Source: a virus
Lineage: Duplodnaviria > Caudoviricetes
Length of the DNA stretch: 55,769 nt
Reading direction: 5' to 3' (one strand)
Virus record (IMG/VR): IMGVR_UViG_3300013137_000025
Span: 1 to 55,769 of that record
Below are positions 1-26,205 of the stretch, piece after piece. The notes beneath the pieces were generated by a model. The model searched no databases. It worked only from the letters and a program-made list of their open reading frames with translations, and was not told the DNA's origin. The position numbers were made by a program, and so were the translations under genes. Position 1 is the first letter of the stretch. Each line of letters opens with the position of its first letter.

Positions 1-157
1 CCCAGGACAGGTTCGCCCCGTACAGGGTCGCCCCGGACAGGTCCGCCCCGGACAGGTCCGCCCCGGACAGGTCCGCCCAAGACAGGTCCGCACGCACTCC
101 TCCGTGTTCGTTATTCAGCCACAGGGCATGCAGCCGAAGCACTTTATTGAGGTCCAT
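1..157 (-). CDS. Pentapeptide repeat protein (partial, runs off window start)
   Basis: Manual translation from ATG at 157: MDLNKVLRLHALWLNNEHGGVRADLSWADLSGADLSGADLSGATLYGANLSW; 15-bp tandem repeat at about 1-92 encodes A(D/N)Lxx repeats. Not in the ORF track. Confidence 0.85.
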   Translation of the reverse strand, partial: MDLNKVLRLHALWLNNEHGGVRADLSWADLSGADLSGADLSGATLYGANLSW

Positions 158-217
158 GAGCCTTAAGGTCCGAATTGTCCATGACGTGAACTCCTTTCTG
201 AAATTCAGAAACTTCTG

Positions 218-406
218 TCAATCCCTGGCGTGTATGAGGTCCTGGAAGTCATTGTGTCTTGCAAGCTCTCCCAACTCGACCTCCAGCTCCCGGAACTTGG
301 CCTTGTAGTAGGCCAGATCGCTGGTGAGGTCTGCAACCCTGAGTTCGAGGTCACAGACCTCCCTTGCACGCTGCATCAGCAGGCGCTCCAAGTGGGTTTC
401 ATTCAT
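218..406 (-). CDS. Hypothetical coiled-coil protein
   Basis: Start MNETHL at 406 overlaps stop of upstream gene; heptad-like LELRVADL...LEVELGEL. Confidence 0.6.
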   Translation of the reverse strand: MNETHLERLLMQRAREVCDLELRVADLTSDLAYYKAKFRELEVELGELARHNDFQDLIHARD

Positions 407-770
407 ATGCGGACTCCACGAATTTCCAGACTTCGGGGATGAATTGTAGGACCCGTCCCAGCACCACGTCTGGATACAAGTTGTGATACGTTTCTCCTTC
501 ATGGGTGAGGGACCACCGCAGGCCGTCGTATTCCAGGTCGAATACGATCGAAGTGGCCACCTTCACAGGACGTTTTTCCGTCCTGGCGACCCCTGTCGCC
601 CGTTGACACGCCTCTTTGTTGGCCAGTGGGCCAAGCAGGGTCAGATAGGACTCCTCTATCGACCATCCACCGGTGGGATGCTTGGCCACCCAGCCCCATG
701 ACATGCAGTCCGACTTGGGGTGGTACTCTATGTCGAATTCCACAGATACATCGAAGTGTCTCTTGATCAC
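399..770 (-). CDS. Hypothetical protein
   Basis: 123-aa ORF co-oriented and packed within the leftward array. Confidence 0.65.
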   Translation of the reverse strand: MIKRHFDVSVEFDIEYHPKSDCMSWGWVAKHPTGGWSIEESYLTLLGPLANKEACQRATGVARTEKRPVKVATSIVFDLEYDGLRWSLTHEGETYHNLYPDVVLGRVLQFIPEVWKFVESAYE

Positions 771-786
771 TGTAGCCGTCCGTTTT

Positions 787-1014
787 CTAAAGGTTGGAAT
801 TGTCCCCTCTGGCCTCTTCTAGGACACAGTCCACCAGATCGTCCGAATCCATCAATCCCCAATGCTCATGGCTTCCATCCGGCCGGTCGATGTTGACTGC
901 CACGTATCGGTATACGGGCAGAGCATTGAACTCATGGTCATCCGCCCTGGAGATAGTCACCTTATTTCCATTGGAGAAGGTGATTTCGATCCCGGTTTCG
1001 GTATTCTTGAACAT
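787..1014 (-). CDS. Hypothetical protein
   Basis: 75-aa ORF with AAGGAG RBS upstream. Confidence 0.7.
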   Translation of the reverse strand: MFKNTETGIEITFSNGNKVTISRADDHEFNALPVYRYVAVNIDRPDGSHEHWGLMDSDDLVDCVLEEARGDNSNL

Positions 1015-1137
1015 ACTGTCTCTCCTTCAAGAGTTAAGCCATCCCCAGATGGCCATGGTGATTTTCCACGCCTCTCTCCCGGATACCCAAAACAGGCACC
1101 CGATCATGACTCCAGGGTATTGCCTTCTTTCTGAATT

Positions 1138-1404
1138 TCAGAAACTGTCTTCGGGGATGACTTTCCCGAAGTAGAAATCGAGGAGACACCAGTCCTCGGT
1201 CTCGTCCACGGGGACCAGAGTGTCTCTCGACCCCCGGAATTGGGCGTCCCGGAATGCCTTCCAGGACCGAGACCGGGCCCGCTGGACGTCATTCCAGGCA
1301 TTGGGTACCCGGTTGATCCCATGCCTGACCTTCGGCTGGAACATCTCATCCCCCTCCAGGCTCCGATACCACTGTCTGGTTCCCCTCGGCCTACGCATCA
1401 CCAC
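1138..1404 (-). CDS. Hypothetical basic phage protein
   Basis: AAGGAG RBS right after palindrome 1415-1429; its TGA lies inside palindrome 1129-1143; PNAWND/RSWK motifs resemble a small phage family. Confidence 0.7.
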   Translation of the reverse strand: MVMRRPRGTRQWYRSLEGDEMFQPKVRHGINRVPNAWNDVQRARSRSWKAFRDAQFRGSRDTLVPVDETEDWCLLDFYFGKVIPEDSF

Positions 1405-1446
1405 ATCTCCTTGATTCTGAATTTCAGAAAATCTCTCCGGGAGAGA

Positions 1447-1638
1447 TTACGACACGTATGCCAAACCCAACTGCCTGGCGATCTGTCGCTTAGCTCCCCT
1501 CGTCAAAGATGTGTTGCGAAGCTGAGCACGAAGCTCCGACTCCCGAATTGCCCCGTAGTTAACAGGGACCGGCTTCCCGAAGACCCTGAACATTGGGTTC
1601 GGGATGCCCCTGGGTGAAGACCCCCAATCAATTCTCAT
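1447..1638 (-). CDS. Hypothetical protein
   Basis: 63-aa ORF overlapping the upstream gene end. Confidence 0.5.
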   Translation of the reverse strand: MRIDWGSSPRGIPNPMFRVFGKPVPVNYGAIRESELRAQLRNTSLTRGAKRQIARQLGLAYVS

Positions 1639-1840
1639 CGTCGTCCTCCATCAACCGAGGGAGTTCGATGATCAGAAACATGCCGCCCAGGATAGCCCCG
1701 ATCATGGACCCGAGGATCCACAATGGCCGGAGCATGGGATTCCAGGGCCAGATACCCAGGGCCCCCTCGAAGGCGGCTCCCAGGAACAGGGAGATCAATG
1801 CCCCGATCCCCACGGCTCGGGTGAGTCCAGAGAGTTTCAT
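1628..1840 (-). CDS. Small membrane protein (2 TM)
   Basis: Two hydrophobic segments and acidic tail; AGAAGG RBS after palindrome 1854-1868. Confidence 0.7.
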   Translation of the reverse strand: MKLSGLTRAVGIGALISLFLGAAFEGALGIWPWNPMLRPLWILGSMIGAILGGMFLIIELPRLMEDDDEN

Positions 1841-1862
1841 GTATCAACCTTCTTTCTGAATT

Positions 1863-2189
1863 TCAGAAATTCCTCACCAGTCCCATGCATCCTATCGGCC
1901 GACCCTTCTCGTCCCGAATTAACTCTCCGGGAGAGAACACATCCCCCCGGTTGGGGACCGCCAGTCTCACCTGGGTGGACACCACCCACCCCACCCCCTC
2001 CTTGGGCTCGGGAAGGAATTCCACCTCCCCCACCCTCTGGGTGAAGATGTCCACCGTCGTCCCAGTCGGAAACTCGACTAAGATGTTCTCCGTCTCCACC
2101 CGAGCCTCGACTCCCGAGGGAACCAACACCATCCGGCCCCGCTGGGAGTGAACCACAATCTCATGCTTCGTCAGGTTCACGAATTCCAT
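1863..2189 (-). CDS. NLTxH-family protein, putative Crn4-like ring nuclease
   Basis: N-terminal VNLTKH, PSG..AR, LPEP, VVS, RGD, RDEKGRPIGC; AGGAGG RBS; stop inside palindrome 1854-1868. Family link recalled, not searched. Confidence 0.55.
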   Translation of the reverse strand: MEFVNLTKHEIVVHSQRGRMVLVPSGVEARVETENILVEFPTGTTVDIFTQRVGEVEFLPEPKEGVGWVVSTQVRLAVPNRGDVFSPGELIRDEKGRPIGCMGLVRNF

Positions 2190-2354
2190 AAGTCCTCCTA
2201 TTTCAAATCCCGACCATCCCGATCAAGATTCCAAGGTTTGGAATAACTACCCATCACCCACGATACCCAGAGGGTTAGGGTAATAATTATTCGAGAACTT
2301 CGGAGATTCGGGGAATTAGTTTAATCCCCTGATGAATACCCCAAGGTAACGCAG

Positions 2355-2401
2355 GGAGGGCCCAAACTTCGAGCCCCCCCATTCTGACTGCTCGGTCAGA
2401 A
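2355..2401 (-). terminator. Possible terminator hairpins after the 2396-2581 gene
   Basis: TTCTGAC-N6-GTCAGAA inverted repeat (2382-2401) next to a GC-rich stem GGGGGCTCGAAGTTTGGGCCCTCC on minus strand; no clear U-tract. Confidence 0.35.
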
Positions 2402-2581
2402 GTTGACCAGGACACCCACGGCGTTCGGGTGGGCCTGGCGGTACTTCGCCCGGCTCGCCGCCCTCTTGGCCAACTTGGCCACCCGAGCCTTCTGCTCCTC
2501 TACCCGAGCCCTCTGCCTCGCCTCGAAGTCCGCCAACATCATGCTACGCAGCTGGGACAGCTTCCCATTGGCGTCCATCAT
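2396..2581 (-). CDS. Hypothetical basic helical protein
   Basis: GGAGG RBS after palindrome 2597-2611; Arg/Lys/Ala-rich. Confidence 0.7.
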   Translation of the reverse strand: MMDANGKLSQLRSMMLADFEARQRARVEEQKARVAKLAKRAASRAKYRQAHPNAVGVLVNF

Positions 2582-2703
2582 TCAACCCTCCACTTATTCT
2601 GAAATTCAGAATCTTGGCGTTCCCAAGTCCTTGAATTCCAGAGGTTTCCGACTTCCCCCCGGAGGGGGATTCACCCAGGAACCACCTGGGATCATCAGGC
2701 CGG

Positions 2704-2937
2704 TTAGAGGATCGAGGAATCAGGGAGGTTCGGCACCCCGAGAGCATACAGGGTATTCTGGCTCCTGGCGATCATGCAACCAGGAGTCTGATCACCGAAT
2801 TCCATGGCGACCAGGGGACTGGTGATTGCCCGGTGACCATCCGGGAGCCGGGGGTGGTCGTAAACGATCCCCTCCAGGCAGATCCCATGGTCCGGAAAGT
2901 TGATCGTGGACCACTTTTCCATCAATGCGATGACCAT
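2704..2937 (-). CDS. Conserved phage-type hypothetical protein
   Basis: LEGIVYDHPRLPDG..ITS..NTLYALG pattern; AGAGG RBS after palindrome 2950-2964. Confidence 0.7.
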   Translation of the reverse strand: MVIALMEKWSTINFPDHGICLEGIVYDHPRLPDGHRAITSPLVAMEFGDQTPGCMIARSQNTLYALGVPNLPDSSIL

Positions 2938-3016
2938 GGTAAGCCCTCTTTCTGAATTTCAGAATTACGGTCCAAGTGTATATTTCGGCTCCCCGACTAT
3001 CGGGGGTCCGTGGAGC

Positions 3017-3325
3017 AAGTGAATATTGATGCCCGAAAACCGGGGGGTTTATCGGACGAGTGGATAGGAAATGCACAGATGACGTATAATTGGGGGTTTT
3101 TGCCCCCAACCGAAGTGTATATTCCCCTTTCCTCCCGAATCGTCCTTCCTGAACCCCTTGGAACCTGGACTGGGACCACCGAAAAAGTGGATATTTCGAT
3201 GTTCCACAGTCGTTTCTGCATATTGCCCGATCTTGAACCCCCGAATTGTCGACCTTCGACGGCCCGAAGTGAATATCGATGCCCCAAAACACGGGGTTCT
3301 ATCGGGCACCTGGATAGGAAATGCA
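3017..3325 (+). repeat. Imperfect 59-bp direct repeat (3017-3075 and 3267-3325) with AAGTG(A/T/G)ATAT decamers
   Basis: Both copies begin AAGTGAATAT and end TGGATAGGAAATGCA; decamer also at 2974, 3113, 3185. Confidence 0.8.
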
Positions 3326-3444
3326 ATCCAGGAATATCTGGGGGCAATTCGCTCTGAATAAGCGAATCGAATTACCCCCGTGAAACATCACAGGAGATGC
3401 ACTAAGTTAGCCTCATCTCCTGATCCGGGGATTCCGAATTGTCC

Positions 3445-3612
3445 CTACTTTTCGAGAGAAACGAACACCCGAGCGCTGGAGACACCTTTCTCTTCCCGCC
3501 GAGAGGCGGCGAACTGCTCCGCCTCTTCCGACGACCGGAAATAGAATACCTGGTCATTGGTCCAATAGAAACTGATGACCACGACAAAGTCGAATTCGAA
3601 TTCGAACGTCAT
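3445..3612 (-). CDS. Hypothetical protein
   Basis: Start MTFEFEF at 3612 with GGAGG RBS after palindrome 3630-3644. Confidence 0.65.
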   Translation of the reverse strand: MTFEFEFDFVVVISFYWTNDQVFYFRSSEEAEQFAASRREEKGVSSARVFVSLEK

Positions 3613-3689
3613 TCTCACCCTCCACTTCTTTCTGAATTTCAGAATCTCCTGATCCACGGAATTATGGACCAGGGGAGCCCGAATTGCCC

Positions 3690-3875
3690 CTACCTGACCA
3701 CCACAGGACGGACATAGTCGTCATGGTCGACGACCAGCAGGCCGGGGGAGTAGACCGAGATCATCCGCAGGATCTTGTACCCGTCCTTGGGGAGGAACAT
3801 CGTCCCCAAGGGACCGGTGAATACATGAACGTCCAACCCCTTCTCGACCTTATCAAACTCGAAGATCATTGTCAC
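3690..3875 (-). CDS. Hypothetical protein
   Basis: AGGAGG RBS after palindrome 3887-3901. Confidence 0.7.
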   Translation of the reverse strand: MTMIFEFDKVEKGLDVHVFTGPLGTMFLPKDGYKILRMISVYSPGLLVVDHDDYVRPVVVR

Positions 3876-4286
3876 CCTCCTCTTCTTTCTGAATTTCAGA
3901 ATTATCTGGGCTCTCCAGAAGTTTCTGAATTTCAGAATTACCAGGCATTCCGAATTAGGCAGAGGTATCCCCCCCCGGTCCAGCCAGGGTGGACCCTATT
4001 CGGAATTACCCAAGGGGATTCGGATTCCGAATTATCCAGGTGATTATCCACCCGAATTACCCGGCATGTGAGCCCCCTATCGCCCCAGGTCACTTGGCGG
4101 TTCCAGGTCTTTACCTGGGGCAAGTCCGCCCGGTCGACATCGACCACAGACCGTATTCAGGATCCAATCCGGATCCGCATACGCATATCCATATCCACGT
4201 ATTCCGCATATTCGCATAAATGCAGACGCCTCGGATATCTCTGAAATTCAGAATATCCGAGGCGCCTGGCACGACTTTTGCCGCAG

Positions 4287-5294
<1,008 letters not shown>

Positions 5295-5403
5295 TGCGAC
5301 CAACTCCCGACTCGGTCCCACTGTCAACCTTCCTTGCTTTGGCCGGGTTCGCGCGCGGCAGTTTGCCGCTTGCCCCCCGACCTCCCTTACAACGTGTCCA
5401 CTA

Positions 5404-5432
5404 AAGATAAGCATTCGCCAGCCCCTTGTCAA
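5404..5432 (-). promoter_or_regulatory. Sigma70-type promoter for the leftward array
   Basis: TTGACA (5432-5427) - 17 nt - TATCTT (5409-5404). Confidence 0.7.
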
Positions 5433-5438
5433 GCCTCC

Positions 5439-5504
5439 CGGCGGCAGCCGGCGGCAACCCCAGCCGGCGGCAGCCGGCGGCAACCAGCGGCAGCCGGCGG
5501 CAGC
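5439..5504. repeat. Degenerate 9-10 bp tandem repeat (C)CGGCGGCAG
   Basis: About 6 units just upstream of the promoter. Confidence 0.7.
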
Positions 5505-6072
5505 GTTACCGAATTGCCGAATCCCCCAGCCCCCGTTCTTTCCGAATTCCGGAAAGACGAGAAACTTGGACCCCAGCCCTTGACAGATCCAGGTGGATGT
5601 AAAATCCAGATTTGGAAAAACGCTGTACGCTACCTCATCCTTTTGAAGTCGAAATCCGTACACCCCCTCCCCGAATTCTCGAATCCCCCAATCATGGTTT
5701 CCCCCCGGAATATCTGTTCCCCAATTCTCTTTCCCCGAATGTCTAATTCTCTATTCCTCTGGGGTTTCTAAATCTCTGAATTGCTGTGGGGTTATCTGGG
5801 TTATCTCTCCCTGGATTCTCTGGTTCCTTTTGGACGACATAGTTGTCCTTGGGTTCTATATTCCTCTTTGGATGGCCTCTGAATCGTCTTTACCTGTGTG
5901 GAGGGGTGACTGCTTCTGAACGCGAAGTTCTCTTTTTCGCGGGGATGATTTGATTATTGGTTCTCCTTTTTGGGAGGAGAAATTGGAAATTGGTAAACCG
6001 AGGGGGAATGTATTATGGATAGACATCGGTTACATGTGGTTTGGAGTTCACATTCCGGCCGGAGGGAGGGGA

Positions 6073-6477
6073 ATGGATGGGGATTGTGATGTGAAGGTAT
6101 GGATTGATTGGGAGTGGATGAGGATAGAGGTGTCGGGGGATGGGGATCGGCGGGTGGTGGTGTTTAGTGAGGCGTTTATGGAGAGGCTGAGGGGATGTGC
6201 GCAGCGCACCACGATGGTGGTATTGTCGAAGGTGTTGAAGTCATTGGGGGCTATGGGGATGATGGTGGATGATGTGGTGCAGTTGGATGAGTTATCGCGG
6301 TGGTATGGATTGGAGAGGGGGGAGGATGGGGAGTGGGATTGGGGGAAGGTGGCATGGGGGGATGATCGGGATTTGACGGTGTGGTGGTTTATGGATGGGG
6401 GGTTGGGGATGGCGGGGGTGGGCAAGGTATTGGGGTTATTGGACCGGGTAGTGAGGGAGATGGAGAAGGGGTTGTGA
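6073..6477 (+). CDS. Hypothetical protein
   Basis: ATG 6073 after GGAGG; first gene of the rightward block. Confidence 0.6.
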   Translation: MDGDCDVKVWIDWEWMRIEVSGDGDRRVVVFSEAFMERLRGCAQRTTMVVLSKVLKSLGAMGMMVDDVVQLDELSRWYGLERGEDGEWDWGKVAWGDDRDLTVWWFMDGGLGMAGVGKVLGLLDRVVREMEKGL

Positions 6478-7328
6478 GGGTGATTGTGGGGTTGAGTGGT
6501 GGAAAGGCGTCGGCGTGGTGTGCTGGGTGGGCGTTAAGGAACTTCCCCAAGGAAGGGGTAGTTTTCTATTTCAATGATACCAAGTGGGAGCACCGGGATC
6601 TGTATAGATTTATTGATGATCTGTCAAGATATTTTGATCATCCTATTACAGTGGATTCGGATGGAAGGAGTCCTGAGGATTTGTTTCGTGAATACAGAGT
6701 ATTGGCTAGTAGTAGGATGCCGTTTTGCACCAGGATTCTGAAGGCCCAGAGGCTTCAGGTATTTTATGAGGATGGGGATGTGTTAGTTTTCGGTATAGAT
6801 TCCAGGGAACCGGAGAGGGCGAAAAATCTGGAGAGAATTTATTCGATGGTGGCTATTAAAACCGGGAAGAAATGTCAGTTGAGGTTTCCCCTTATAGAGG
6901 AGCGGGTTACAAGGGATCAGGTGGATGAATTTATCAAGAGCACGGGCATCTTGGAGCCACAGATGTATCGATTGGGGTTCTTGCATAACAACTGCTCGGG
7001 TGGGTGTGTTAGGGCGGGGAAGAGACAATGGAAGATGCTGTATGAGAAGCTCCCCGAGGTATATGCTGAGAGGGAGAGGGTGGAGAGGGAGCTTGGTGAG
7101 TTGTTGGGGAAGAAGGTGTCTTTCTTAAGGGGAGAGACCTTAGAGGAGTTCAGGGGGAAGATTGAGAGAAAGTCCTTATCATCCTATTACTACGACGATA
7201 CGTGTAGTGGTAGGGAGTATTGGAAGCTGGTGAGCAGGTATGAGGCTGATAAGAAAAAGAAGGCGGCCCCTCGTCCAACCCGTGGGAAGAAGGGGTTTGT
7301 GCGTAGAAGATTTGGGATTGGGAAATAA
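6474..7328 (+). CDS. PAPS-reductase-like / adenine nucleotide alpha-hydrolase (PP-loop) protein
   Basis: GTG start overlapping upstream TGA; VIVGLSGGKAS PP-loop, CTRILK, FPL, HNNCSGGCVRAG Cys cluster. Confidence 0.8.
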   Translation: MRVIVGLSGGKASAWCAGWALRNFPKEGVVFYFNDTKWEHRDLYRFIDDLSRYFDHPITVDSDGRSPEDLFREYRVLASSRMPFCTRILKAQRLQVFYEDGDVLVFGIDSREPERAKNLERIYSMVAIKTGKKCQLRFPLIEERVTRDQVDEFIKSTGILEPQMYRLGFLHNNCSGGCVRAGKRQWKMLYEKLPEVYAERERVERELGELLGKKVSFLRGETLEEFRGKIERKSLSSYYYDDTCSGREYWKLVSRYEADKKKKAAPRPTRGKKGFVRRRFGIGK

Positions 7329-7339
7329 GGAGAGAGATA

Positions 7340-7666
7340 ATGCGCATAGGCGAGGTCGTGATGGCGTTGTTGGGGGGAGGGAAGAAGGCTGGGCCTCTGG
7401 AGGAAGTGGAGTCACCGCCCCCTGCTCCGGCCGTGGACGAGTTGACCTTGGTAATCCATCTGAGGAATGGCCTAAAGAGGACCTATACAGCACAGATAGG
7501 GAAAACTGACCAGAAGATTGAGGCGGATTTAAATGTTCATTATCCCCAGTTGTGGGAGGAGTTGGAGGGGAATGGGAAGTCGGTATTGTTTCAATACAAC
7601 GAAGGGGAGGATTGGTTTTTGAGGGAGGAGATTGTCCTCGTCACCCTGAATTTGAAGAGGGGGTGA
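7340..7666 (+). CDS. Hypothetical protein
   Basis: AAGGAG RBS; operonic. Confidence 0.7.
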   Translation: MRIGEVVMALLGGGKKAGPLEEVESPPPAPAVDELTLVIHLRNGLKRTYTAQIGKTDQKIEADLNVHYPQLWEELEGNGKSVLFQYNEGEDWFLREEIVLVTLNLKRG

Positions 7667-7670
7667 TGGA

Positions 7671-8090
7671 ATGAGTGATACGAAGAGGTATGTTCTTGTT
7701 TATGCTGGGTTGGATAAAAAGGGCAATGCCGACAACAGGTATTTTGTTGGCCAGAATCTCTACCTTGGCATAGCCAATATAACGGATAGCCTGGAGTTGG
7801 CCACTATCATGTCTCTTGAGGAAGCGGAGAAGGTCTGGGGTTTGATGGCGGCAAAGAAGGATTGGCAGATTTGGTCTATAAGGGACAGCATTGTTCTTTA
7901 CGAGGAGTCGGATAGGCACTTGCTTATGGAGAAGCGCAAGAGGCTATCGGAGGAGTTGATGTCGATAGATCTCCAGCTTAATAAGAACTCAGACGGGCAT
8001 GGGGAGCGCCCACAGATATCTCCTGAGAATATGAGAAAGATGATAAATACTACCAGTGTTACGACGGACCAGGCTGGGTCTGTGGAGTGA
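7671..8090 (+). CDS. Hypothetical protein
   Basis: 139-aa operonic ORF. Confidence 0.7.
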   Translation: MSDTKRYVLVYAGLDKKGNADNRYFVGQNLYLGIANITDSLELATIMSLEEAEKVWGLMAAKKDWQIWSIRDSIVLYEESDRHLLMEKRKRLSEELMSIDLQLNKNSDGHGERPQISPENMRKMINTTSVTTDQAGSVE

Positions 8091-8098
8091 GGAAATTC

Positions 8099-8239
8099 GG
8101 GATGGACCTGATAGTGGGACGCCACGAACGCGCCTGTTCGAATCGTCTAAGGTGAAACCTGTGCACAGCGGACGCCGTGTACTACGGTCGGGAGATCGGG
8201 GAGGAGCATGACCTCCGGCGGGTGTTTCAGGTCCATCCC
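8099..8239 (+). ncRNA. Candidate structured non-coding RNA, family unknown
   Basis: Intergenic; perfect 13-bp closing stem GGGATGGACCTGA/TCAGGTCCATCCC enclosing CGCC/GGCG and five hairpins, including a GGGA tetraloop. Confidence 0.65.
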
Positions 8240-8289
8240 ATTGGATCATATGGGAACTTTCACTCTCCAAGGGCTGGAAAGGAGTGGCG

Positions 8290-8703
8290 ATGAACCTATT
8301 CACTGCGGAATATTGGGCCAAACATTTTGAACGAATGGAATACGAAGATGGCATTTATCCCAGTGAATCGGACGCCATGATGATTGATGATGTAGCAATC
8401 TTGTATGTGGATCACCTTGGGATGATCCAAATGGAGGGGGCGCGGAGGGGGTCGTTTATCGTTCCCCTAAAGGGTTACCGTAAGGTGAGGGACCTGGAGG
8501 TAGCGATTTCCTTCCGGCCCTGTAAAGAGGGGTTTTGTGGCTCGATTTGGACTGTCGATACCCAAGGAATCGGGTTCTCCTTCCTTGTGCTAAGGGCCGG
8601 CAAGCCTTATGTTTATGGGGTGGCATTGGAGGGCAAGTATCTGGGCCCCATGAACGAAGACGAGGAGGAGGCTCTTGATGCACTCAATGAACGTAGAGGC
8701 TGA
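8290..8703 (+). CDS. Hypothetical protein
   Basis: AAGGAG RBS; ATG 8290. Confidence 0.7.
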   Translation: MNLFTAEYWAKHFERMEYEDGIYPSESDAMMIDDVAILYVDHLGMIQMEGARRGSFIVPLKGYRKVRDLEVAISFRPCKEGFCGSIWTVDTQGIGFSFLVLRAGKPYVYGVALEGKYLGPMNEDEEEALDALNERRG

Positions 8704-9079
8704 CGCTTCGAGTGATGGATGTCCCAGTGATGAAACAGGGGTTCTCTTGGATTTTCAGGATTCGTCTATCATGTTTGATGGAGAGCTTCTGGATGCTCTG
8801 GAGGCTGCTCCTGCTTGGGTCGCTGCGACGGTGGTTGGGGGAATCTCTGATCATTACGCAAGGATGCATATAGCTCGTGCCCAGGTTGATAGGATTCAGT
8901 CGATATTATGGAGGTTTGCTCACAAGTATCCGCATGAAATCCAGATACTGCTGGACTGGATGCGAAGAGGGTATGAGTATTCTGGAGATCCTTTTAGTGA
9001 TCTGAAGTTTCTTACTTCGTTTGCCCGATGGGTAGAAACAGAGGACATTATATTCAGGATTTTCAGCAAGGAGGACTGA
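8675..9079 (+). CDS. Hypothetical protein
   Basis: Operonic ORF; exact start uncertain. Confidence 0.65.
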   Translation: MMHSMNVEADASSDGCPSDETGVLLDFQDSSIMFDGELLDALEAAPAWVAATVVGGISDHYARMHIARAQVDRIQSILWRFAHKYPHEIQILLDWMRRGYEYSGDPFSDLKFLTSFARWVETEDIIFRIFSKED

Positions 9080-9083
9080 TTCC

Positions 9084-9581
9084 ATGAACACCCAAGACGA
9101 CGGGGGAATCCCTCACATAGATGTCCCGATTATCAATCGATACGAAGGGATGGTGATAGCCTACCTCAAGTCGGAGAATGGGGGTTGCTGCTATGTGGGG
9201 CTGCATCCTGAGATCCTCCAGGTATTGGACCGGGTGGGGAGCTATAGGGTGGCAGAGATATTCTGTTTGAAGGTGTTGGACGGCCTGTGTAAACACGGGG
9301 TTAAGTATATGGACGAGGTGAAATTCGAGTGGCCGGATGACATGGTGAACAATGTCGGGAAGGTGGGGGATCTTTCGGATTGGTTTCTTCCCAAGGCCCC
9401 TCGCACCTTCAACTACGAGCAGGAGGTTAAGAAGGCTATCTCCGAACTGTCTTATCTCGACACGATCATGGCTCAGTGGATGGTGTCCGGAATTGACTTG
9501 GAGGTGGACAGCAAGGTTAAGCATGGGATTGATGTCCTTCTGGCTCTCGATGTATTCTTTTCCAGAATCTCCCACCACTAA
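9084..9581 (+). CDS. Hypothetical protein
   Basis: AGGAGG RBS; 165 aa. Confidence 0.7.
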   Translation: MNTQDDGGIPHIDVPIINRYEGMVIAYLKSENGGCCYVGLHPEILQVLDRVGSYRVAEIFCLKVLDGLCKHGVKYMDEVKFEWPDDMVNNVGKVGDLSDWFLPKAPRTFNYEQEVKKAISELSYLDTIMAQWMVSGIDLEVDSKVKHGIDVLLALDVFFSRISHH

Positions 9582-9596
9582 CAAGAATTGAACGTC

Positions 9597-10253
9597 ATGG
9601 GCTGCGATATTCATGTCAATTACGAAGTCAAGATGGGGTCAGGTGGTTGGGAGAGAATCAATTGGGAGGATGAATTCATTCGGAAGATGAGGATTGACGA
9701 GGACGGAACCCAGTGGCCCGAGTGGGATTTTAATAAGATGGGGGAGAGCGTGTATTATATTTCGAGGAACTACTTCCTATTTTCCATCCTCGCAGATGTC
9801 CGTAATTACTGTGACATGGTGCCCATTTCTTCCCCACGCGGGCTTCCCAAAGACGTTTCCCAGGACACTCTTACCAAAAGCAAGGAGTTTGGGTGTGATG
9901 GCCATAGCCACTCCTGGTTGTCGCTTGAGGAGCTTCTTGCCTACGACTGGGATCGGACCGTGTTGCTTGACGGGGTCGTAAACGAAGAAGAATACCGGCA
10001 GTGGAAAGAGAAGGGGGCCCCCGAGTCCTACTGCGCCGGGGTGAGCGGAGGGAGGGTGTGCTTCGTCACCCAAGAAGAGATGGAGGATCTGGTGACAGGG
10101 GTAGTGGTCCCAGATCCCTATCTCTCCTACTACACATCCGTCGAGTGGGAGCACTCCTATCGCCAGTGTGTTGGCGAGAAGTTCTTTATCACCCTGAATC
10201 ACTTGTCCAATATACCGGGTTCCGTTCGGTTGGTCTTCTGGTTTGATTGCTGA
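9597..10253 (+). CDS. Conserved phage hypothetical protein (MGCDIH family)
   Basis: MGCDIH start, RNY.LF.ILADVRN, PRGLP.D, HSHSWL, RLVFWFD end. Confidence 0.8.
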   Translation: MGCDIHVNYEVKMGSGGWERINWEDEFIRKMRIDEDGTQWPEWDFNKMGESVYYISRNYFLFSILADVRNYCDMVPISSPRGLPKDVSQDTLTKSKEFGCDGHSHSWLSLEELLAYDWDRTVLLDGVVNEEEYRQWKEKGAPESYCAGVSGGRVCFVTQEEMEDLVTGVVVPDPYLSYYTSVEWEHSYRQCVGEKFFITLNHLSNIPGSVRLVFWFDC

Positions 10254-10327
10254 TAGGGCCTCCAGCGTATTATGTATATCTATAGCGGACACCGAGCGAG
10301 AAACCGCATGTATCCATACCTTTTGGC

Positions 10328-10954
10328 ATGGAGAATAGGGCGATGACAGCAAGTGAATGGGCAGCGAAGTTACATGGCCGGGAGTTCAAATTGTTCGGAG
10401 GATTCCTATCAGAAGATGAGTGTGCCCAAGCCGCTAAAGATGACGTGGTCATTATCTATGGTTATTCGGATGATCTGTTGGAACTGGAAGGAGCCGTGGA
10501 CGAGGAGTATGCCGCCTGGGGCGGGCTGAACGGCAGGGTGATTAGAGGGGTTCGCATCGACGCTATCTGGAGCCCCAAGTCCGTTGATGCCTCGTGGCTC
10601 ATCATCGCCCCTGGATTCTCCTTCGATATCATCGAAGGGAATGGAAGCCTGTTTTGCCGTGGATCCGTGGTTCCTGGAAAATTGTTTCGGTATCCCGATA
10701 ATCAAGAACCAGAATCCAGGGAGTGGAGAATTGTCTTCAATGGAGATGATGATTGTCCGTGTTACATGTTTATGTTTGTAGAAACCAGTAAAATGCCTGG
10801 CGATACCATGGAACGAAACGGAATGTTGATGACACCCCACGCATCAGATGTCACCACCCTTCGTCAGAGATTTGGCGACATGGAGAAGGCATTCAACAAA
10901 CCGGTCTTGGACGAGCGCGTAGTAAACCCCGTTTCCGCAGGAAACTACCCATGA
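10328..10954 (+). CDS. Conserved phage hypothetical protein
   Basis: VIIYGYSDDLLELEGAVDEE and FCRG motifs. Confidence 0.7.
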   Translation: MENRAMTASEWAAKLHGREFKLFGGFLSEDECAQAAKDDVVIIYGYSDDLLELEGAVDEEYAAWGGLNGRVIRGVRIDAIWSPKSVDASWLIIAPGFSFDIIEGNGSLFCRGSVVPGKLFRYPDNQEPESREWRIVFNGDDDCPCYMFMFVETSKMPGDTMERNGMLMTPHASDVTTLRQRFGDMEKAFNKPVLDERVVNPVSAGNYP

Positions 10955-11295
10955 AGGTCATCATAGCCGGAGGAAGAGACTTCGAGGGCGGCAAGAAACA
11001 CCGCAAGTGGCTCAAGGAACAACTGCAAGATTTGCAGGCCACCTACGTGCTGTCCGGGTGCGCCCGTGGTGCCGACGCCTTCGGGGAGGAGGTCGCACAG
11101 GAACTGAACATCCCTGTCGAGATCCACCCGGCCGCGTGGGCAGTACACGGACGGTCAGCAGGCCTCTTTCGCAACGAAGCCATGGCCCAACTTGCGGATG
11201 CCTGTATTCTGTTTCCCGGTGGTCGAGGAACCCAGGACATGGAATCCAGAGCCATCAAACACGAACTCGTCATCAGGAAGTGGGAGGAAAAGTGA
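10951..11295 (+). CDS. SLOG superfamily (DUF2493/YspA-like) protein
   Basis: MKVIIAGGRDF, SGCARGAD, AG..RN..M, GGRGT motifs. Confidence 0.85.
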   Translation: MKVIIAGGRDFEGGKKHRKWLKEQLQDLQATYVLSGCARGADAFGEEVAQELNIPVEIHPAAWAVHGRSAGLFRNEAMAQLADACILFPGGRGTQDMESRAIKHELVIRKWEEK

Positions 11296-11519
11296 TCAAG
11301 ATTCTCATCCCAGAAGGAGACCTGTGCCGCTCCAAGGAAACAGGAGAAGCCTGCACCTGTCTGCGCCACAAGAAGCACCCTCCCCACAAGGGAGGAGGCC
11401 CCACCCTCGTGGAATCCTATGCCTGTGACCTATTCCGAATTAGAGTTCCCTGTAAGGTGGACGTCGATGGGTTCCTGTGTATCTCCAAGAACCCGTATTG
11501 CTTTCGTTTCCAGCCATGA
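11292..11519 (+). CDS. Small Cys-rich hypothetical protein
   Basis: GTGA overlap start (MIKILIPEGDLC). Confidence 0.55.
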   Translation: MIKILIPEGDLCRSKETGEACTCLRHKKHPPHKGGGPTLVESYACDLFRIRVPCKVDVDGFLCISKNPYCFRFQP

Positions 11520-11815
11520 CCCAACCTGGCAATAAAAATGTCCACGTCGTAGAGTCTTGCTGCGCGTCCTGCAACGCCACAGGGATCATCCAAGATCACC
11601 GGGGAGACTGGGTGCTATGTCCCGCCTGCCAGGGCAGTGGGTCCGTCCTCGTGTTCGTAGAACCCTTCACAGGCCGTCGAGAGGTTACTGGCGTCGAGAA
11701 AGTGAAAGTCCTATACGGACAATTCCAAGCGGAGACAGGGGAATGGCTGGGGAAGGAAGTGGACTACCAGGAGTTCCTGTCGGGGAAGGCGATCAGATGC
11801 TCCCAGACCAGGTAA
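11516..11815 (+). CDS. DnaJ-type zinc-finger-like small protein
   Basis: CASCNATG and CPACQGSG (CxxCxGxG-like) motifs; ATGA overlap. Confidence 0.6.
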   Translation: MTQPGNKNVHVVESCCASCNATGIIQDHRGDWVLCPACQGSGSVLVFVEPFTGRREVTGVEKVKVLYGQFQAETGEWLGKEVDYQEFLSGKAIRCSQTR

Positions 11816-12018
11816 CCTGTTCCACATGCCAACACTACCAGCCAAAAAAACGCGGGGACCTGTGCAAGAAGAAGAAGGGGTCCCTGTTGCAGAATATCGG
11901 ATTCGGAATGTTTGCCGAAATCACCTACAGCGGTCTGGGGTTGTCGGAGGTTGACGAGGATGACCAAGGACAGGTGGTCGTCCTGAAAAACTGCCCCCTC
12001 TACCAACGAAAGGCCTGA
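11797..12018 (+). CDS. Small Cys-rich hypothetical protein
   Basis: CSTCQHY...C...CPLY. Confidence 0.55.
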   Translation: MLPDQVTCSTCQHYQPKKRGDLCKKKKGSLLQNIGFGMFAEITYSGLGLSEVDEDDQGQVVVLKNCPLYQRKA

Positions 12019-12020
12019 AC

Positions 12021-12290
12021 ATGAAGATCGAAGTCGTTCCCGAGAAAATCACCGTGAAACTGGGCGATACGTCTGTTAAGCTCACCCGCGATGAATGCTG
12101 GGACCTATACCATGCCCTCGAAAAGGAACTTGGAATCCAGATACTCCCCACTTATCCGAACAACCCGTGGTGGATAGAGATTCAAAACCCACCCCTCAAC
12201 CCATACATTATCTGGTCCTCTGATAACACGGGCTCTGTTGATCTTGATTCGCATATCAAGGTCAACTCCATCAAGTCCGATGCCCCATGA
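12021..12290 (+). CDS. Hypothetical protein
   Basis: Operonic 89-aa ORF. Confidence 0.65.
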   Translation: MKIEVVPEKITVKLGDTSVKLTRDECWDLYHALEKELGIQILPTYPNNPWWIEIQNPPLNPYIIWSSDNTGSVDLDSHIKVNSIKSDAP

Positions 12291-12886
12291 AGGAAGTAGA
12301 GGTGCTGACTCCATCAGCTATCCTTATGTGGGTTACTCCAGACCCAGAGTGGACCATTGAGCGGGCCGCCAGGGTGTGCTACGATTCCCTTGACAAGATC
12401 GGGGAACGTCCTCAAGTAAATGAAAAGATGCTGCGTAGACTCAGAGCCTCAGGGCACTTGTCTTGCTTCGAACAAGCATCAGCATCTTTCGAGATCATTT
12501 GCTCAAGGGCGTGCCACGTCCAGATCATCAGACATCGGACCATGTCTTACTTGGCCCAATCTCAGCGTTACGTGAAACTGGGAGGGTTCCTGCCCGTGTG
12601 CGTGGTAGACCCCATCACAGATGACGAGAGATCTTTCTATGAGCACTGCTACTATGAGTATCAACGTCGGATCGAGGTCGGGCAGAAGCCCGAGAGGGCC
12701 AGGGAGGTCCTGCCCAACTCCACGGCAACCAGAATGATCATGACGGGAAACTTCACTAACTGGAGGAGATTCTTGTCAGCCAGACTGGACCCCCATGCCC
12801 AAAGCGAAGTCCGGCTTGTTGCTGGACAAATAGCGTCTTCCTTGAAAAAGATCGCCCCCATAGTCTTCGAGGACGTGAATCCATGA
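12287..12886 (+). CDS. thyX: FAD-dependent thymidylate synthase
   Basis: ARVCY, GH.S.FE, RHRTMSYLAQSQRYV (RHRx7S motif), AREVLP, HAQ.E. Confidence 0.95.
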   Translation: MKEVEVLTPSAILMWVTPDPEWTIERAARVCYDSLDKIGERPQVNEKMLRRLRASGHLSCFEQASASFEIICSRACHVQIIRHRTMSYLAQSQRYVKLGGFLPVCVVDPITDDERSFYEHCYYEYQRRIEVGQKPERAREVLPNSTATRMIMTGNFTNWRRFLSARLDPHAQSEVRLVAGQIASSLKKIAPIVFEDVNP

Positions 12887-23958: not shown

Positions 23959-26205
23959 CTACGGAGCCAACTGTTCACAGTTTTCAAGTTTTCTTTCCAG
24001 TTCCTCCACTCTTTTAAGCAAGTCCTGGATGAGGATCGTGTTGGCCATGGTCATGTCTGAACTTTGGAACATCGTGGTGTCGCCTTCCACCCCATGCAGG
24101 ATGGTGCTGACGGGAGCGAAGTCCTGCGCTATAGGTCCTACATGGTTCCCCTCTCCATCCTCCTCCGTCTTCCAATCCCAGCGGGCGATGTCGAACTCCT
24201 CATAGGCCTCCCGCAGCGCCAGCACGACGGAGTCGAAGAGGGGGAGGATGTTCTTCTTCTTTGCCCTATCGCTACTCGTCGTGAAGGTAGCGCTTCCTGC
24301 GTTCAGCTTGGAGTAGGCCCCCGCCGCGTCATACACAGAGAAGTCGTAGGTGGAATCCATGTCCCCGGTGCTAAAGGCACCATTGGCGTGGAAGTAGAAG
24401 GCATATTGGGCGCCTCCCTTTGTAGTCAGGACTTGTGCCGTTGCCCCATCCTCCTCCGTCCCATCCACCAGCCAGTGGATGCCACCTACTAGCACAGAGT
24501 CTGTTCCCAGGAAATACTGCTCCCCATGGAGGAGGGAACCATTTGCGTAGCTGTCGCTGTTTCCCCACCTCTGTACCAAAGAACTGCTGGTCAGCTTATG
24601 GCTCTCCAGCTCCGCACCCGCTATCTCGGCCAAGTTCACCGGCCAATACAGGCAGCTAGGGGTCGCGGTAGTGGCGTAGCCATAGTTGCGCACCATAGCG
24701 CGCCCCGTTGGCGCTACCGTGAAGAGGTCCCCGTTCGGTTTCACCAAACTCCGTAGGGAATCATTTGTGACAATCGCCGTCCCTGCCCTTCCCGCCATGA
24801 CCAACTGCCCCGTGCTAGTACCTACGAAGCTAGGCGTACTAGCCTCCCTCATAACGAAGGCCGCAGTGGACCCTGTCCCCATGGTGAGGACGCAAGCCGC
24901 CCCGGCTATGGGGGAATCCATGAAGATCACGGGGCTGTTGTCCTGGATCTCAATCTCCCCTACTGCATCGTAGTCACTTCTATGACTCCCTACTGCTATC
25001 CGTGGGAAGCTGGGCACACCATACGTAGATTCTGCGCTGCGGTAGACAGTTATGATGGTGTCCTGCGGGGCATACGAGTCTGCGAGCATCAGCAAGGACA
25101 ACTTCTCCCCCGCGCCTGCCCACTCATACATATGCTCGTTGCTTGTTCCCCCCGTATCATAGAACCTCATTGATGGCCTTGCTCCATACATCTCCATAGA
25201 TTTCCGGGTGCGATCAAATCTAACTAAGGTGTCTCTACCTGTTTTCTCGTCATCGTCAAGATGGGTTGCTATATACATATTTCCAGCGTTAGAGTTAATT
25301 CCCCAAATCCTCTCCCCGGTCCCTTCACTTGTGTCATTCAGAAGAATGGATGGATGAGTATCACTAACTCGTATGTCACCACCAGATACTTCAAGTTTGT
25401 CAGAGGGCGACCCTGTGCTCCCGATCATAACATTGCCGGATCGAATGGCAGTATAAGAATGTCCAGATCCTGTGCTTGGAACCACTGTTAGGACGGTGTC
25501 AGAGATTGTTCCAGCACTGTTCATATCTGCAAGATACAGCTTCCCGCCATTCATCCCTAAGTCGTATCTTGCGTTGTTGTCGTGTATGGGAGGATCCTCA
25601 TACCACATGAGAAATGGGGATGCCCCAACAACAGCCAAGTATTCTCCGGCCACGACTCCATCATCCGCTATAATCTCACCTGGAGTTCTAAGGACACGTT
25701 CAGTGAAATAAAACGCAGTGTCTGTTATGGCCCCTAAGTCATTTCTTCCATGAACACCAAAGGTTCCATAACCTCCTCCCCCGCTTGTAAAGGCTGAGAT
25801 AGTCCACATCTTCTCGTTGGCAGGAGCATTGGTATCGATTAGGTAGATCAGAGGGTCGGTGTTCGATGTTACGATATCAGAGCTTGCTATAAAAGTTCCG
25901 TCCTCTGCCACCGTAAAAGCGTCTTGCCATCCCGAATTGTAAAATTGAAGTGAAAGAGAACTATCGGAATCGAGTTGCCCGAATCTCCAATATTCTGTGT
26001 CATCTATCAAAAACCTAATCTGAGATGTCTCGGCAATATCAAGTTTTGCGTAATTTTTGATTACCATAACTTTTCCAGAATCCACAGTGACACTGTCACC
26101 TCTGGTAATCGAAGAACTAACAGCCCAAAGAGTGTAATTTTCATTATTGGAAAATATCCATAATGTCGTTATTATAGATAATAATGCAATGGCTATTTTC
26201 TTCAT
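23959..26205 (-). CDS. Tail fibre with C-terminal intramolecular chaperone (peptidase S74-like)
   Basis: TSSDRAKKKNI, GPIAQD and terminal coiled coil; internal repeats; hydrophobic N-terminus. Confidence 0.8.
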   Translation of the reverse strand: MKKIAIALLSIITTLWIFSNNENYTLWAVSSSITRGDSVTVDSGKVMVIKNYAKLDIAETSQIRFLIDDTEYWRFGQLDSDSSLSLQFYNSGWQDAFTVAEDGTFIASSDIVTSNTDPLIYLIDTNAPANEKMWTISAFTSGGGGYGTFGVHGRNDLGAITDTAFYFTERVLRTPGEIIADDGVVAGEYLAVVGASPFLMWYEDPPIHDNNARYDLGMNGGKLYLADMNSAGTISDTVLTVVPSTGSGHSYTAIRSGNVMIGSTGSPSDKLEVSGGDIRVSDTHPSILLNDTSEGTGERIWGINSNAGNMYIATHLDDDEKTGRDTLVRFDRTRKSMEMYGARPSMRFYDTGGTSNEHMYEWAGAGEKLSLLMLADSYAPQDTIITVYRSAESTYGVPSFPRIAVGSHRSDYDAVGEIEIQDNSPVIFMDSPIAGAACVLTMGTGSTAAFVMREASTPSFVGTSTGQLVMAGRAGTAIVTNDSLRSLVKPNGDLFTVAPTGRAMVRNYGYATTATPSCLYWPVNLAEIAGAELESHKLTSSSLVQRWGNSDSYANGSLLHGEQYFLGTDSVLVGGIHWLVDGTEEDGATAQVLTTKGGAQYAFYFHANGAFSTGDMDSTYDFSVYDAAGAYSKLNAGSATFTTSSDRAKKKNILPLFDSVVLALREAYEEFDIARWDWKTEEDGEGNHVGPIAQDFAPVSTILHGVEGDTTMFQSSDMTMANTILIQDLLKRVEELERKLENCEQLAP

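Follow-up and report, generated by a model that had tools for sequence, protein, structure and literature searches.

A 141-nt unit closed by a perfect 13-bp inverted repeat in an intercistronic spacer of a lake-water phage: a possible working RNA or mobile-DNA relic

In phage T7, RNase III-type intercistronic sites place a stable helix between co-transcribed genes and outside the next Shine-Dalgarno (S-D) sequence. These sites are ~20-bp hairpins with an internal loop, and a helix of 13 bp would be a short one for a classical RNase III site. The element described here, which occupies positions 8099-8239 of the DNA that we analysed, may by analogy be set beside them, although its 13-bp helix closes a 115-nt multi-branch insert and is not used repeatedly elsewhere in that DNA. 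The element also recalls a retron msr-msd ncRNA, in that a perfect inverted repeat (a1/a2-like) closes a multi-hairpin RNA of ~140 nt. However, the ORFs next to it (137 aa and 134 aa) match nothing in Pfam or PHROG and no reverse transcriptase (RT) is adjacent; we rejected a retron because none of the 15 ORFs scanned from 4287 to 12886 has an RT domain. At the DNA level, the passages of PMC11602168 that we draw on describe prokaryotic MITEs as units of 50-800 bp whose terminal repeats span at least 10-15 bp, and report few of them in viral genomes. Compared with MITEs as described in those passages, the element is likewise non-coding and intergenic, with perfect 13-bp terminal inverted repeats (TIRs), and would likewise give a long-stemmed RNA if transcribed; it differs in being present as a single copy, with only a putative target-site duplication, no related copy in the genome, plasmid and virus collections searched and no partner transposase seen. 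Finally, the viral structured-RNA candidates that comparative screens yielded in PMC10690425, which we compared through its general account, and the phage motifs of Rfam share with the element an intergenic position, a structured appearance and a place on IMG/VR phage contigs. The candidates of PMC10690425, in that account, rest on covariation among homologues, whereas the element has none and matches 0 of 4227 Rfam models.

The window, by which we mean the whole stretch of DNA analysed, corresponds to one IMG/VR virus record (55,769 bp) from an uncultivated lake-water phage, and near-identical DNA is present in three lake-water metagenome runs. The record is estimated to be 39% complete, so that 61% of the phage genome is unseen. 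A domain and family scan of its ORFs returned a phage-like gene content (Table 1). The + strand gene block (5950-12886) is tightly packed. Since its other genes abut or overlap, and since a seeming gap at 12019-12286 contains a small ORF, the 199 nt at 8091-8289 form the only sizeable gap in the block. S-D-type ribosome-binding sites are in use in this phage, and the genes on both sides of the gap have them. The public gene call of the downstream ORFan starts at 8335 and gives 122 aa, 15 codons after the ATG at 8290; the S-D sequence at 8290 (AAGGAG, 5-nt spacer) is much better than that at 8335. Coding readings across the gap were considered and rejected: a 121-aa ORF on the - strand (7989-8354) and ORFs of 51 and 40 aa on the + strand all look non-coding. 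A 17-codon ORF begins at 8102, with GAGG in front of it.

Table 1. Genes, sequence features and predicted folds at and around the element
Feature	Position	Strand	Detail
PAPS-reductase-like gene	6381-7328	+	
Upstream ORFan gene	7671-8090	+	139 aa; stop TGA at 8088-8090
5' arm	8099-8111	+	GGGATGGACCTGA; starts 8 nt past the upstream stop codon
Inner 115 nt	8112-8226	+	G+C-rich; stability no better than shuffles
Predicted local hairpins of the inner part	8114-8125, 8150-8160, 8161-8182, 8185-8198, 8200-8216	+	
CGAAC; GTTCG	8125; 8136		
Helix P3	8130-8138 with 8217-8225	+	weak, G-U-rich; closes the inner junction
T-loop-like word	8136		GTTCGAATC
Hairpin word	8150		AGGTGAAACCT
GTGCAC; GTGTAC	8161; 8177		
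Hairpin word	8185		CGGTCGGGAGATCG
GGAGG; CCTCC	8200; 8212		
3' arm	8227-8239	+	TCAGGTCCATCCC; 13/13 Watson-Crick with the 5' arm, no G-U pair
Ordinary leader of downstream gene	8240-8289	+	
CACTC; GAGTG	8261; 8085 and 8282		
Downstream S-D (AGGAG); start codon ATG	8280-8284; 8290		
Downstream ORFan gene	8290-8703	+	137 aa from ATG 8290, with a good S-D
phrog_10141 protein	9588-10253	+	
SLOG-domain protein	10951-11295	+	
ThyX	12287-12886	+	
RecA/UvsX, HslV-like peptidase, RNA ligase, dNMP kinase, large structural genes		-	
Predicted fold, 149 nt	8095-8243	+	MFE -68.5 kcal/mol; z -3.5; 1/200 shuffles as stable
Predicted fold, 149 nt	8095-8243	-	MFE -59.2 kcal/mol; z -3.8; 0/200 shuffles as stable
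Predicted fold, 141 nt	8099-8239	+	MFE -67.0 kcal/mol; z -4.0; 0/300 shuffles as stable
Predicted fold, 141 nt	8099-8239	-	MFE -57.7 kcal/mol; z -3.7; 0/300 shuffles as stable

The gap contains the element, 141 nt closed by a perfect 13-bp inverted repeat. An earlier note on this DNA had reported the stem, which we confirm over its full length, and the other motifs that it listed are likewise present where it had placed them, give or take a few bases. The G+C content is 0.59 across the element and 0.43-0.50 in its flanks, and deleting 8099-8239 in silico leaves a normal spacer of 58 nt. The repeat is the only perfect one of at least 13 nt with a 3-300-nt spacer in the window. Windows simulated under a first-order Markov model (n=200) averaged 0.19 such repeats each, and at least one was present in 18% of these windows, so that a 13-bp repeat taken alone is unremarkable. 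Among 20,000 simulated 199-nt gaps of the same composition, by contrast, only 0.035% carried a 13-bp repeat (3.5e-4), and the repeat observed encloses precisely the DNA by which the one large gap exceeds an ordinary spacer. Short inverted repeats are generally over-represented in the window (9 observed vs 2.97 expected at 11 nt), and the other repeats of at least 11 nt are scattered through coding sequence. Two candidate relatives inside the window were rejected: the repeat at 2027-2280, considered as a paralogue, overlaps a real - strand gene, and a supposed second copy at 25927 (- strand) has only a 12-mer in common, beyond which the similarity does not extend. The perfect 13-bp repeat is the only listed feature that exceeds chance. 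We take the repeat to be real and 8099-8239 to be a discrete unit.

These frequencies bear directly on a neutral reading, according to which the gap is non-coding filler and the repeat, produced by chance or by a local duplication-inversion, has no function as DNA or as RNA. That nearly one simulated window in five has a repeat of this length is what such a reading would lead one to expect, and the window-wide excess of inverted repeats, the chance-level folding of the inner sequence and the orphan status of the element in every collection searched are all compatible with it. The placement is harder to accommodate given the conditional probability of 3.5e-4, and phage genomes would be expected only rarely to keep 140 bp of filler. 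Contigs from two other lake-water runs match the element without difference, one over its whole length and another up to position 8130 only; this is weak evidence against neutrality, because the contigs come from the same phage. We therefore regard a functionless origin as unlikely.

Predicted folding separates the stem from what it encloses. The earlier note had described a multi-hairpin RNA and had named a folding energy no better than that of shuffled controls as grounds for refuting it. Against such controls the full 141 nt stand out on both strands (Table 1), and the + strand MFE lies ~9 kcal/mol below that of the - strand; the inner hairpins do not stand out. On the + strand the inner 115 nt have an MFE of -43.3; shuffles give -40.5 +/- 3.3, and 60 of 300 reach the same stability (z -0.84). 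On the - strand z is -0.04. All of the stability signal over shuffles derives from the 13-bp clamp. Within the inner part, five of the nine pairs of helix P3 are G-U, and P3 competes with the CGAAC/GTTCG hairpin of the earlier note. A scan of the window in 150-nt folds (step 25, both strands) placed its most extreme values within 1-5700 of the - strand; the scanned segment nearest to the element, at 8101 (+), has a z of -1.7, the 25-nt step having missed the exact register. The multi-hairpin picture is thus mostly what any G+C-rich 115-mer yields once a long repeat closes it, and the locus illustrates how a single long inverted repeat makes a G+C-rich spacer resemble an elaborate multi-hairpin RNA.

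The inner ensemble on the + strand is nevertheless better defined than that of shuffles, with an MFE frequency of 0.169 (reached by 6 of 300) and an ensemble diversity of 9.1 (reached by 16 of 300). No such signal of definedness is seen for the inner ensemble of the - strand, where 99 of 300 shuffles reach the MFE frequency and 215 of 300 the diversity. This predicted + strand definedness is the sole hint of RNA-level order, the MFE structure making up 12-17% of the + strand ensemble.

The explanation that we tentatively prefer, while holding it with well under even confidence, is that 8099-8239 is a discrete insert in an ordinary 58-nt spacer that is co-transcribed and acts in cis as a clamp-closed RNA domain. 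The 141-bp unit sits between two co-oriented genes of the + strand block and would most likely be transcribed, on that strand, within a polycistronic mRNA. Because no sigma-70-like promoter or intrinsic terminator is predicted at 7342-8592 on the + strand, read-through is the simplest assumption. The G+C-rich 13-bp clamp would then give the element a compact, stable fold between the cistrons, with the S-D and ATG of the downstream gene staying outside the clamp. Such a domain might offer double-stranded RNA for processing of the RNase III kind, might protect the transcript by forming a stabilising barrier, or might insulate the two genes so that their translation is uncoupled. In weighing this explanation we count as established that the repeat exists, that it is not placed where it is by chance, that the fold is predicted to be stable and that no known family matches; the raised G+C content and the definedness specific to the + strand slightly favour a reading at the RNA level. 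Against it, a 13-bp stem free of G-U pairs and mismatches would seem more like a repeat acting at the DNA level than like a selected RNA helix. The element also has no homologue in the collections searched and no covariation, its inner hairpins are at chance level, more than half of P3 consists of G-U pairs, and neither the window expectation of 0.19 repeats nor the z of -1.7 in the 150-nt scan helps the case.

Almost as likely as a cis-acting RNA domain, though in itself still doubtful, is that the 141-142 bp are a MITE-like non-autonomous mobile element, or the relic of one, with 13-bp TIRs, tolerated in the spacer without an RNA function of its own. Both the length and the repeats fall within the prokaryotic MITE range as it is given in the passages of PMC11602168 cited above, and the element has the small non-coding body and the TIRs of at least 10-15 bp named there (141 bp, 13/13 pairs). 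Perfectly Watson-Crick arms, an inner sequence whose stability does not exceed that of shuffles on the + or the - strand, a G+C content that differs from that of the flanks, and the normal spacer with an intact S-D hairpin that removal leaves behind all speak for an inserted DNA unit. The trinucleotide ATT occurs on both sides, at 8095-8097 and 8240-8242, and might represent a target duplication of 3 bp on the assumption that the element starts at C8098. However, such a duplication would span just 3 bp and sit one base off at the left; compared with the 2-10 bp target-site duplication of MITEs, the flanks read ATTC and ATTG, which share ATT, and this abuts the repeat on the right only. MITEs are expected in several copies in the genome or in the host, whereas the window, which is 39% of the phage genome, contains a single one: a search for the arm sequence in its 55.8 kb gave three matches (2.39 expected), namely the two arms and one site with two mismatches. 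No transposase was found among the ORFs scanned, again within 39% of the genome, and the scarcity of viral MITEs in those passages of PMC11602168 also weighs against this reading.

Searches for further copies at the DNA level bear on the same question. A pattern requiring both 12-nt arms with a spacer of 100-130 nt had no match in IMG/VR and a single match in 185,579 species genomes. We rejected the latter, at 4190-4331 of a locus from a Rubrobacteraceae MAG, as an assembly artefact; it is a perfect 71+71-nt foldback at the end of the contig stretch examined, in which the last part of a CDS runs into the reverse complement of itself, and such assembly foldbacks automatically satisfy inverted-repeat pattern searches. 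A 26-mer DNA pattern scan gave no match, and a 16-mer from the junction gave four chance matches in which similarity did not go beyond the word. With blastn, queries of 2.5 kb and 199 nt found no match among phages, and plasmids gave four records matching over 47 nt inside an FtsZ gene (E 0.6), none of them full-length. Of 401 Actinomycetota genomes, a phylum chosen for convenience and not as a host, 12 gave matches of 21-38 nt, again none full-length. Should the element prove to be a MITE-like insert, it could help to identify the host when host genomes become available. A transcribed insert folds whatever its origin, so the RNA-level and DNA-level readings are not exclusive. The element is real but an orphan, and we conclude that a working RNA and a mobile-DNA relic are two close readings of it.

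A further possibility is suggested by the leader of the downstream gene. The earlier note had proposed that CACTC in this leader could pair either with GAGTG over the upstream stop codon or with GAGTG overlapping the next S-D sequence, and hence that the element might be part of a ribosome-binding-site switch. Both pairings can form, and folds forced into them are only 2 kcal/mol apart (-86.2 vs -88.2); they are, however, weak 5-nt complementarities of a kind expected by chance. In the predicted leader hairpin, CACUCUCC (8261-8268) pairs with GGA/AGGAGUG (8274-8286) and partly covers the S-D sequence, whose mean unpaired probability is 0.42. This hairpin is self-contained and forms identically with or without 8099-8239, so nothing ties the element to a switch at the ribosome-binding site. 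A scan of 8000-8300 for intrinsic terminators also found none, the stem being followed by AUUGGAUCAUAUGGG and no U-run. With neither a terminator nor an S-D hairpin that depends on the aptamer region, the locus lacks the expression platform of a riboswitch.

The earlier note had inferred a novel phage ncRNA or a riboswitch-like leader. We nonetheless considered, in this sense, that the element might work in trans as a small RNA, or might form a leader, riboswitch-like or protein-binding, through which the alternative CACUC pairings control the 137-aa gene. In favour are the real closing stem, the well-defined + strand fold, the partly sequestered S-D sequence and the small energy difference between the two forced pairings, which would suit a switch; one loop, GGGA at 8190-8193, is what we take to be a GNRA-type loop, and the lack of any known family leaves room for a novel RNA. 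Opposing this, no promoter or terminator is predicted at the borders of the element, the S-D hairpin is independent of it, its inner helices are not better than shuffles, and there is no homologue and hence no covariation. The proposed target is an ORFan without metabolic annotation, which is not a typical riboswitch target, and a riboswitch class limited to one phage would presumably be unprecedented. We consider a regulatory RNA of these kinds improbable.

The element does not belong to any RNA family that we searched. Rfam 15 (4227 models) gave no match at gathering score anywhere in the window and none at E<=10 in 7900-8500 on either strand, with 5S rRNA, riboswitches, ribozymes, YrlA/Y RNA and 6S included; this answers the check with Infernal that the earlier note had called for. 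The resemblances to 5S rRNA and to a T-loop that it had pointed out, already tentative there, fall away, since the words concerned have no supporting stems and match no model. In particular, a T-arm around GTTCGAATC was rejected because the flanking bases give at most two pairs. ARAGORN found no tRNA or tmRNA in the window, nor any at thresholds of 90% and 80%, and at 70% returned only three overlapping spurious calls. A hammerhead ribozyme has a core consensus of CUGANGA ... GAAA around three helices. The CUGAUAG-hairpin-GAAC arrangement of the element is only superficially alike, with the core G-A swapped and CUGA paired in the clamp, and we rejected this candidate, which likewise has no Rfam match.

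Relatives of the locus were sought through its proteins and through a covariance model, R1, built from the single element sequence. Neither the upstream nor the downstream flanking protein has a relative in IMG/VR, and against 5.8 bn proteins each finds only itself, making both ORFans. A HMMER search of 1.84 bn representatives with the downstream protein returned itself and one weak 26-residue match, and the ESM Atlas gave no usable lead for either protein. The phrog_10141 protein has no IMG/VR relative. Using RecA/UvsX as an anchor, we obtained 80 loci at 45-55% identity with 1.33 Mb around them, and R1, run on 81 sources including the window, matched the window itself only; it gave no match in 47 whole viral records. 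Over all loci searched, ~1.4 Mb in total, R1 detected no relative of the element. PAPS reductase relatives at 45-69% identity (three viral and nine metagenome loci) yielded only generic hairpins with R1, the best scoring 18.4 bits among the viral and 11.5 bits among the metagenome loci, and neither of the two loci compared by their ORFs shows synteny downstream. The region with the highest R1 score other than the window itself, at 4658-4763 of a viral locus, was considered as a homologue and rejected for its different architecture and lack of sequence similarity; this region is a nested hairpin, 10 bp around 12 bp, in a 210-nt gap of a contig whose PAPS reductase is 62% identical. With no homologue in any collection searched, the element offers no covariation. 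Nor do the metagenomes supply it, since the contigs from the runs are identical over the element wherever they cover it and so provide no variants for testing the pairing. The sequencing runs listed as containing the stretch are three lake-water DNA runs, with no RNA run among them.

We also considered, and judge very unlikely, that the multi-helix domain of ~141 nt belongs to a new class of phage structured RNA of which no other member has been sequenced. Cleavage at the clamp would release it from the polycistronic transcript, and it would then work in trans, for example by titrating a host RNA-binding or defence protein as a decoy or sponge. A functional RNA of whatever kind at this locus would represent a class without relatives among the 4227 Rfam models and billions of metagenomic sequences, and would hint at the extent of lineage-private RNA biology in rare phages.

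Several other sequence features of the window were observed. The word AATTCGGR is enriched, with 16 matches compared with 4.7 expected, a number that none of 100 shuffles reached; 11 of the 16 sites lie on the - strand in 1-5700, and one (8094-8101, +) adjoins the 5' arm of the inverted repeat. The sequence surrounding these sites is without extended conservation. A 15-bp palindrome, TTCTGAA(A/T)TTCAGAA, has 10 sites between 196 and 4253, in the left arm only (20 strand-wise matches vs 0.03 expected). At least one of them, near 197, lies directly upstream of the S-D sequence and ATG of a small - strand gene, and the palindrome is probably an operator or promoter motif of an early-gene block. 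At 5663-5950 the GC skew flips from -0.18 to +0.49 and the gene strand changes as well. This region is divergent, C/T-rich and non-coding, with repeated (G)AATTCTC-like words, and could contain an origin or act as a divergent promoter. Lastly, a very stable hairpin with 16-nt arms (94% complementary) lies at 4223-4268 on the - strand, just downstream of GGC/GGT/TCC/TGC repeats at the 3' end of a 458-aa ORF (4287-5663). A 276-nt fold of the 4100-4400 region on that strand has a z of -5.2, and the hairpin is probably a terminator beside a low-complexity coding repeat.
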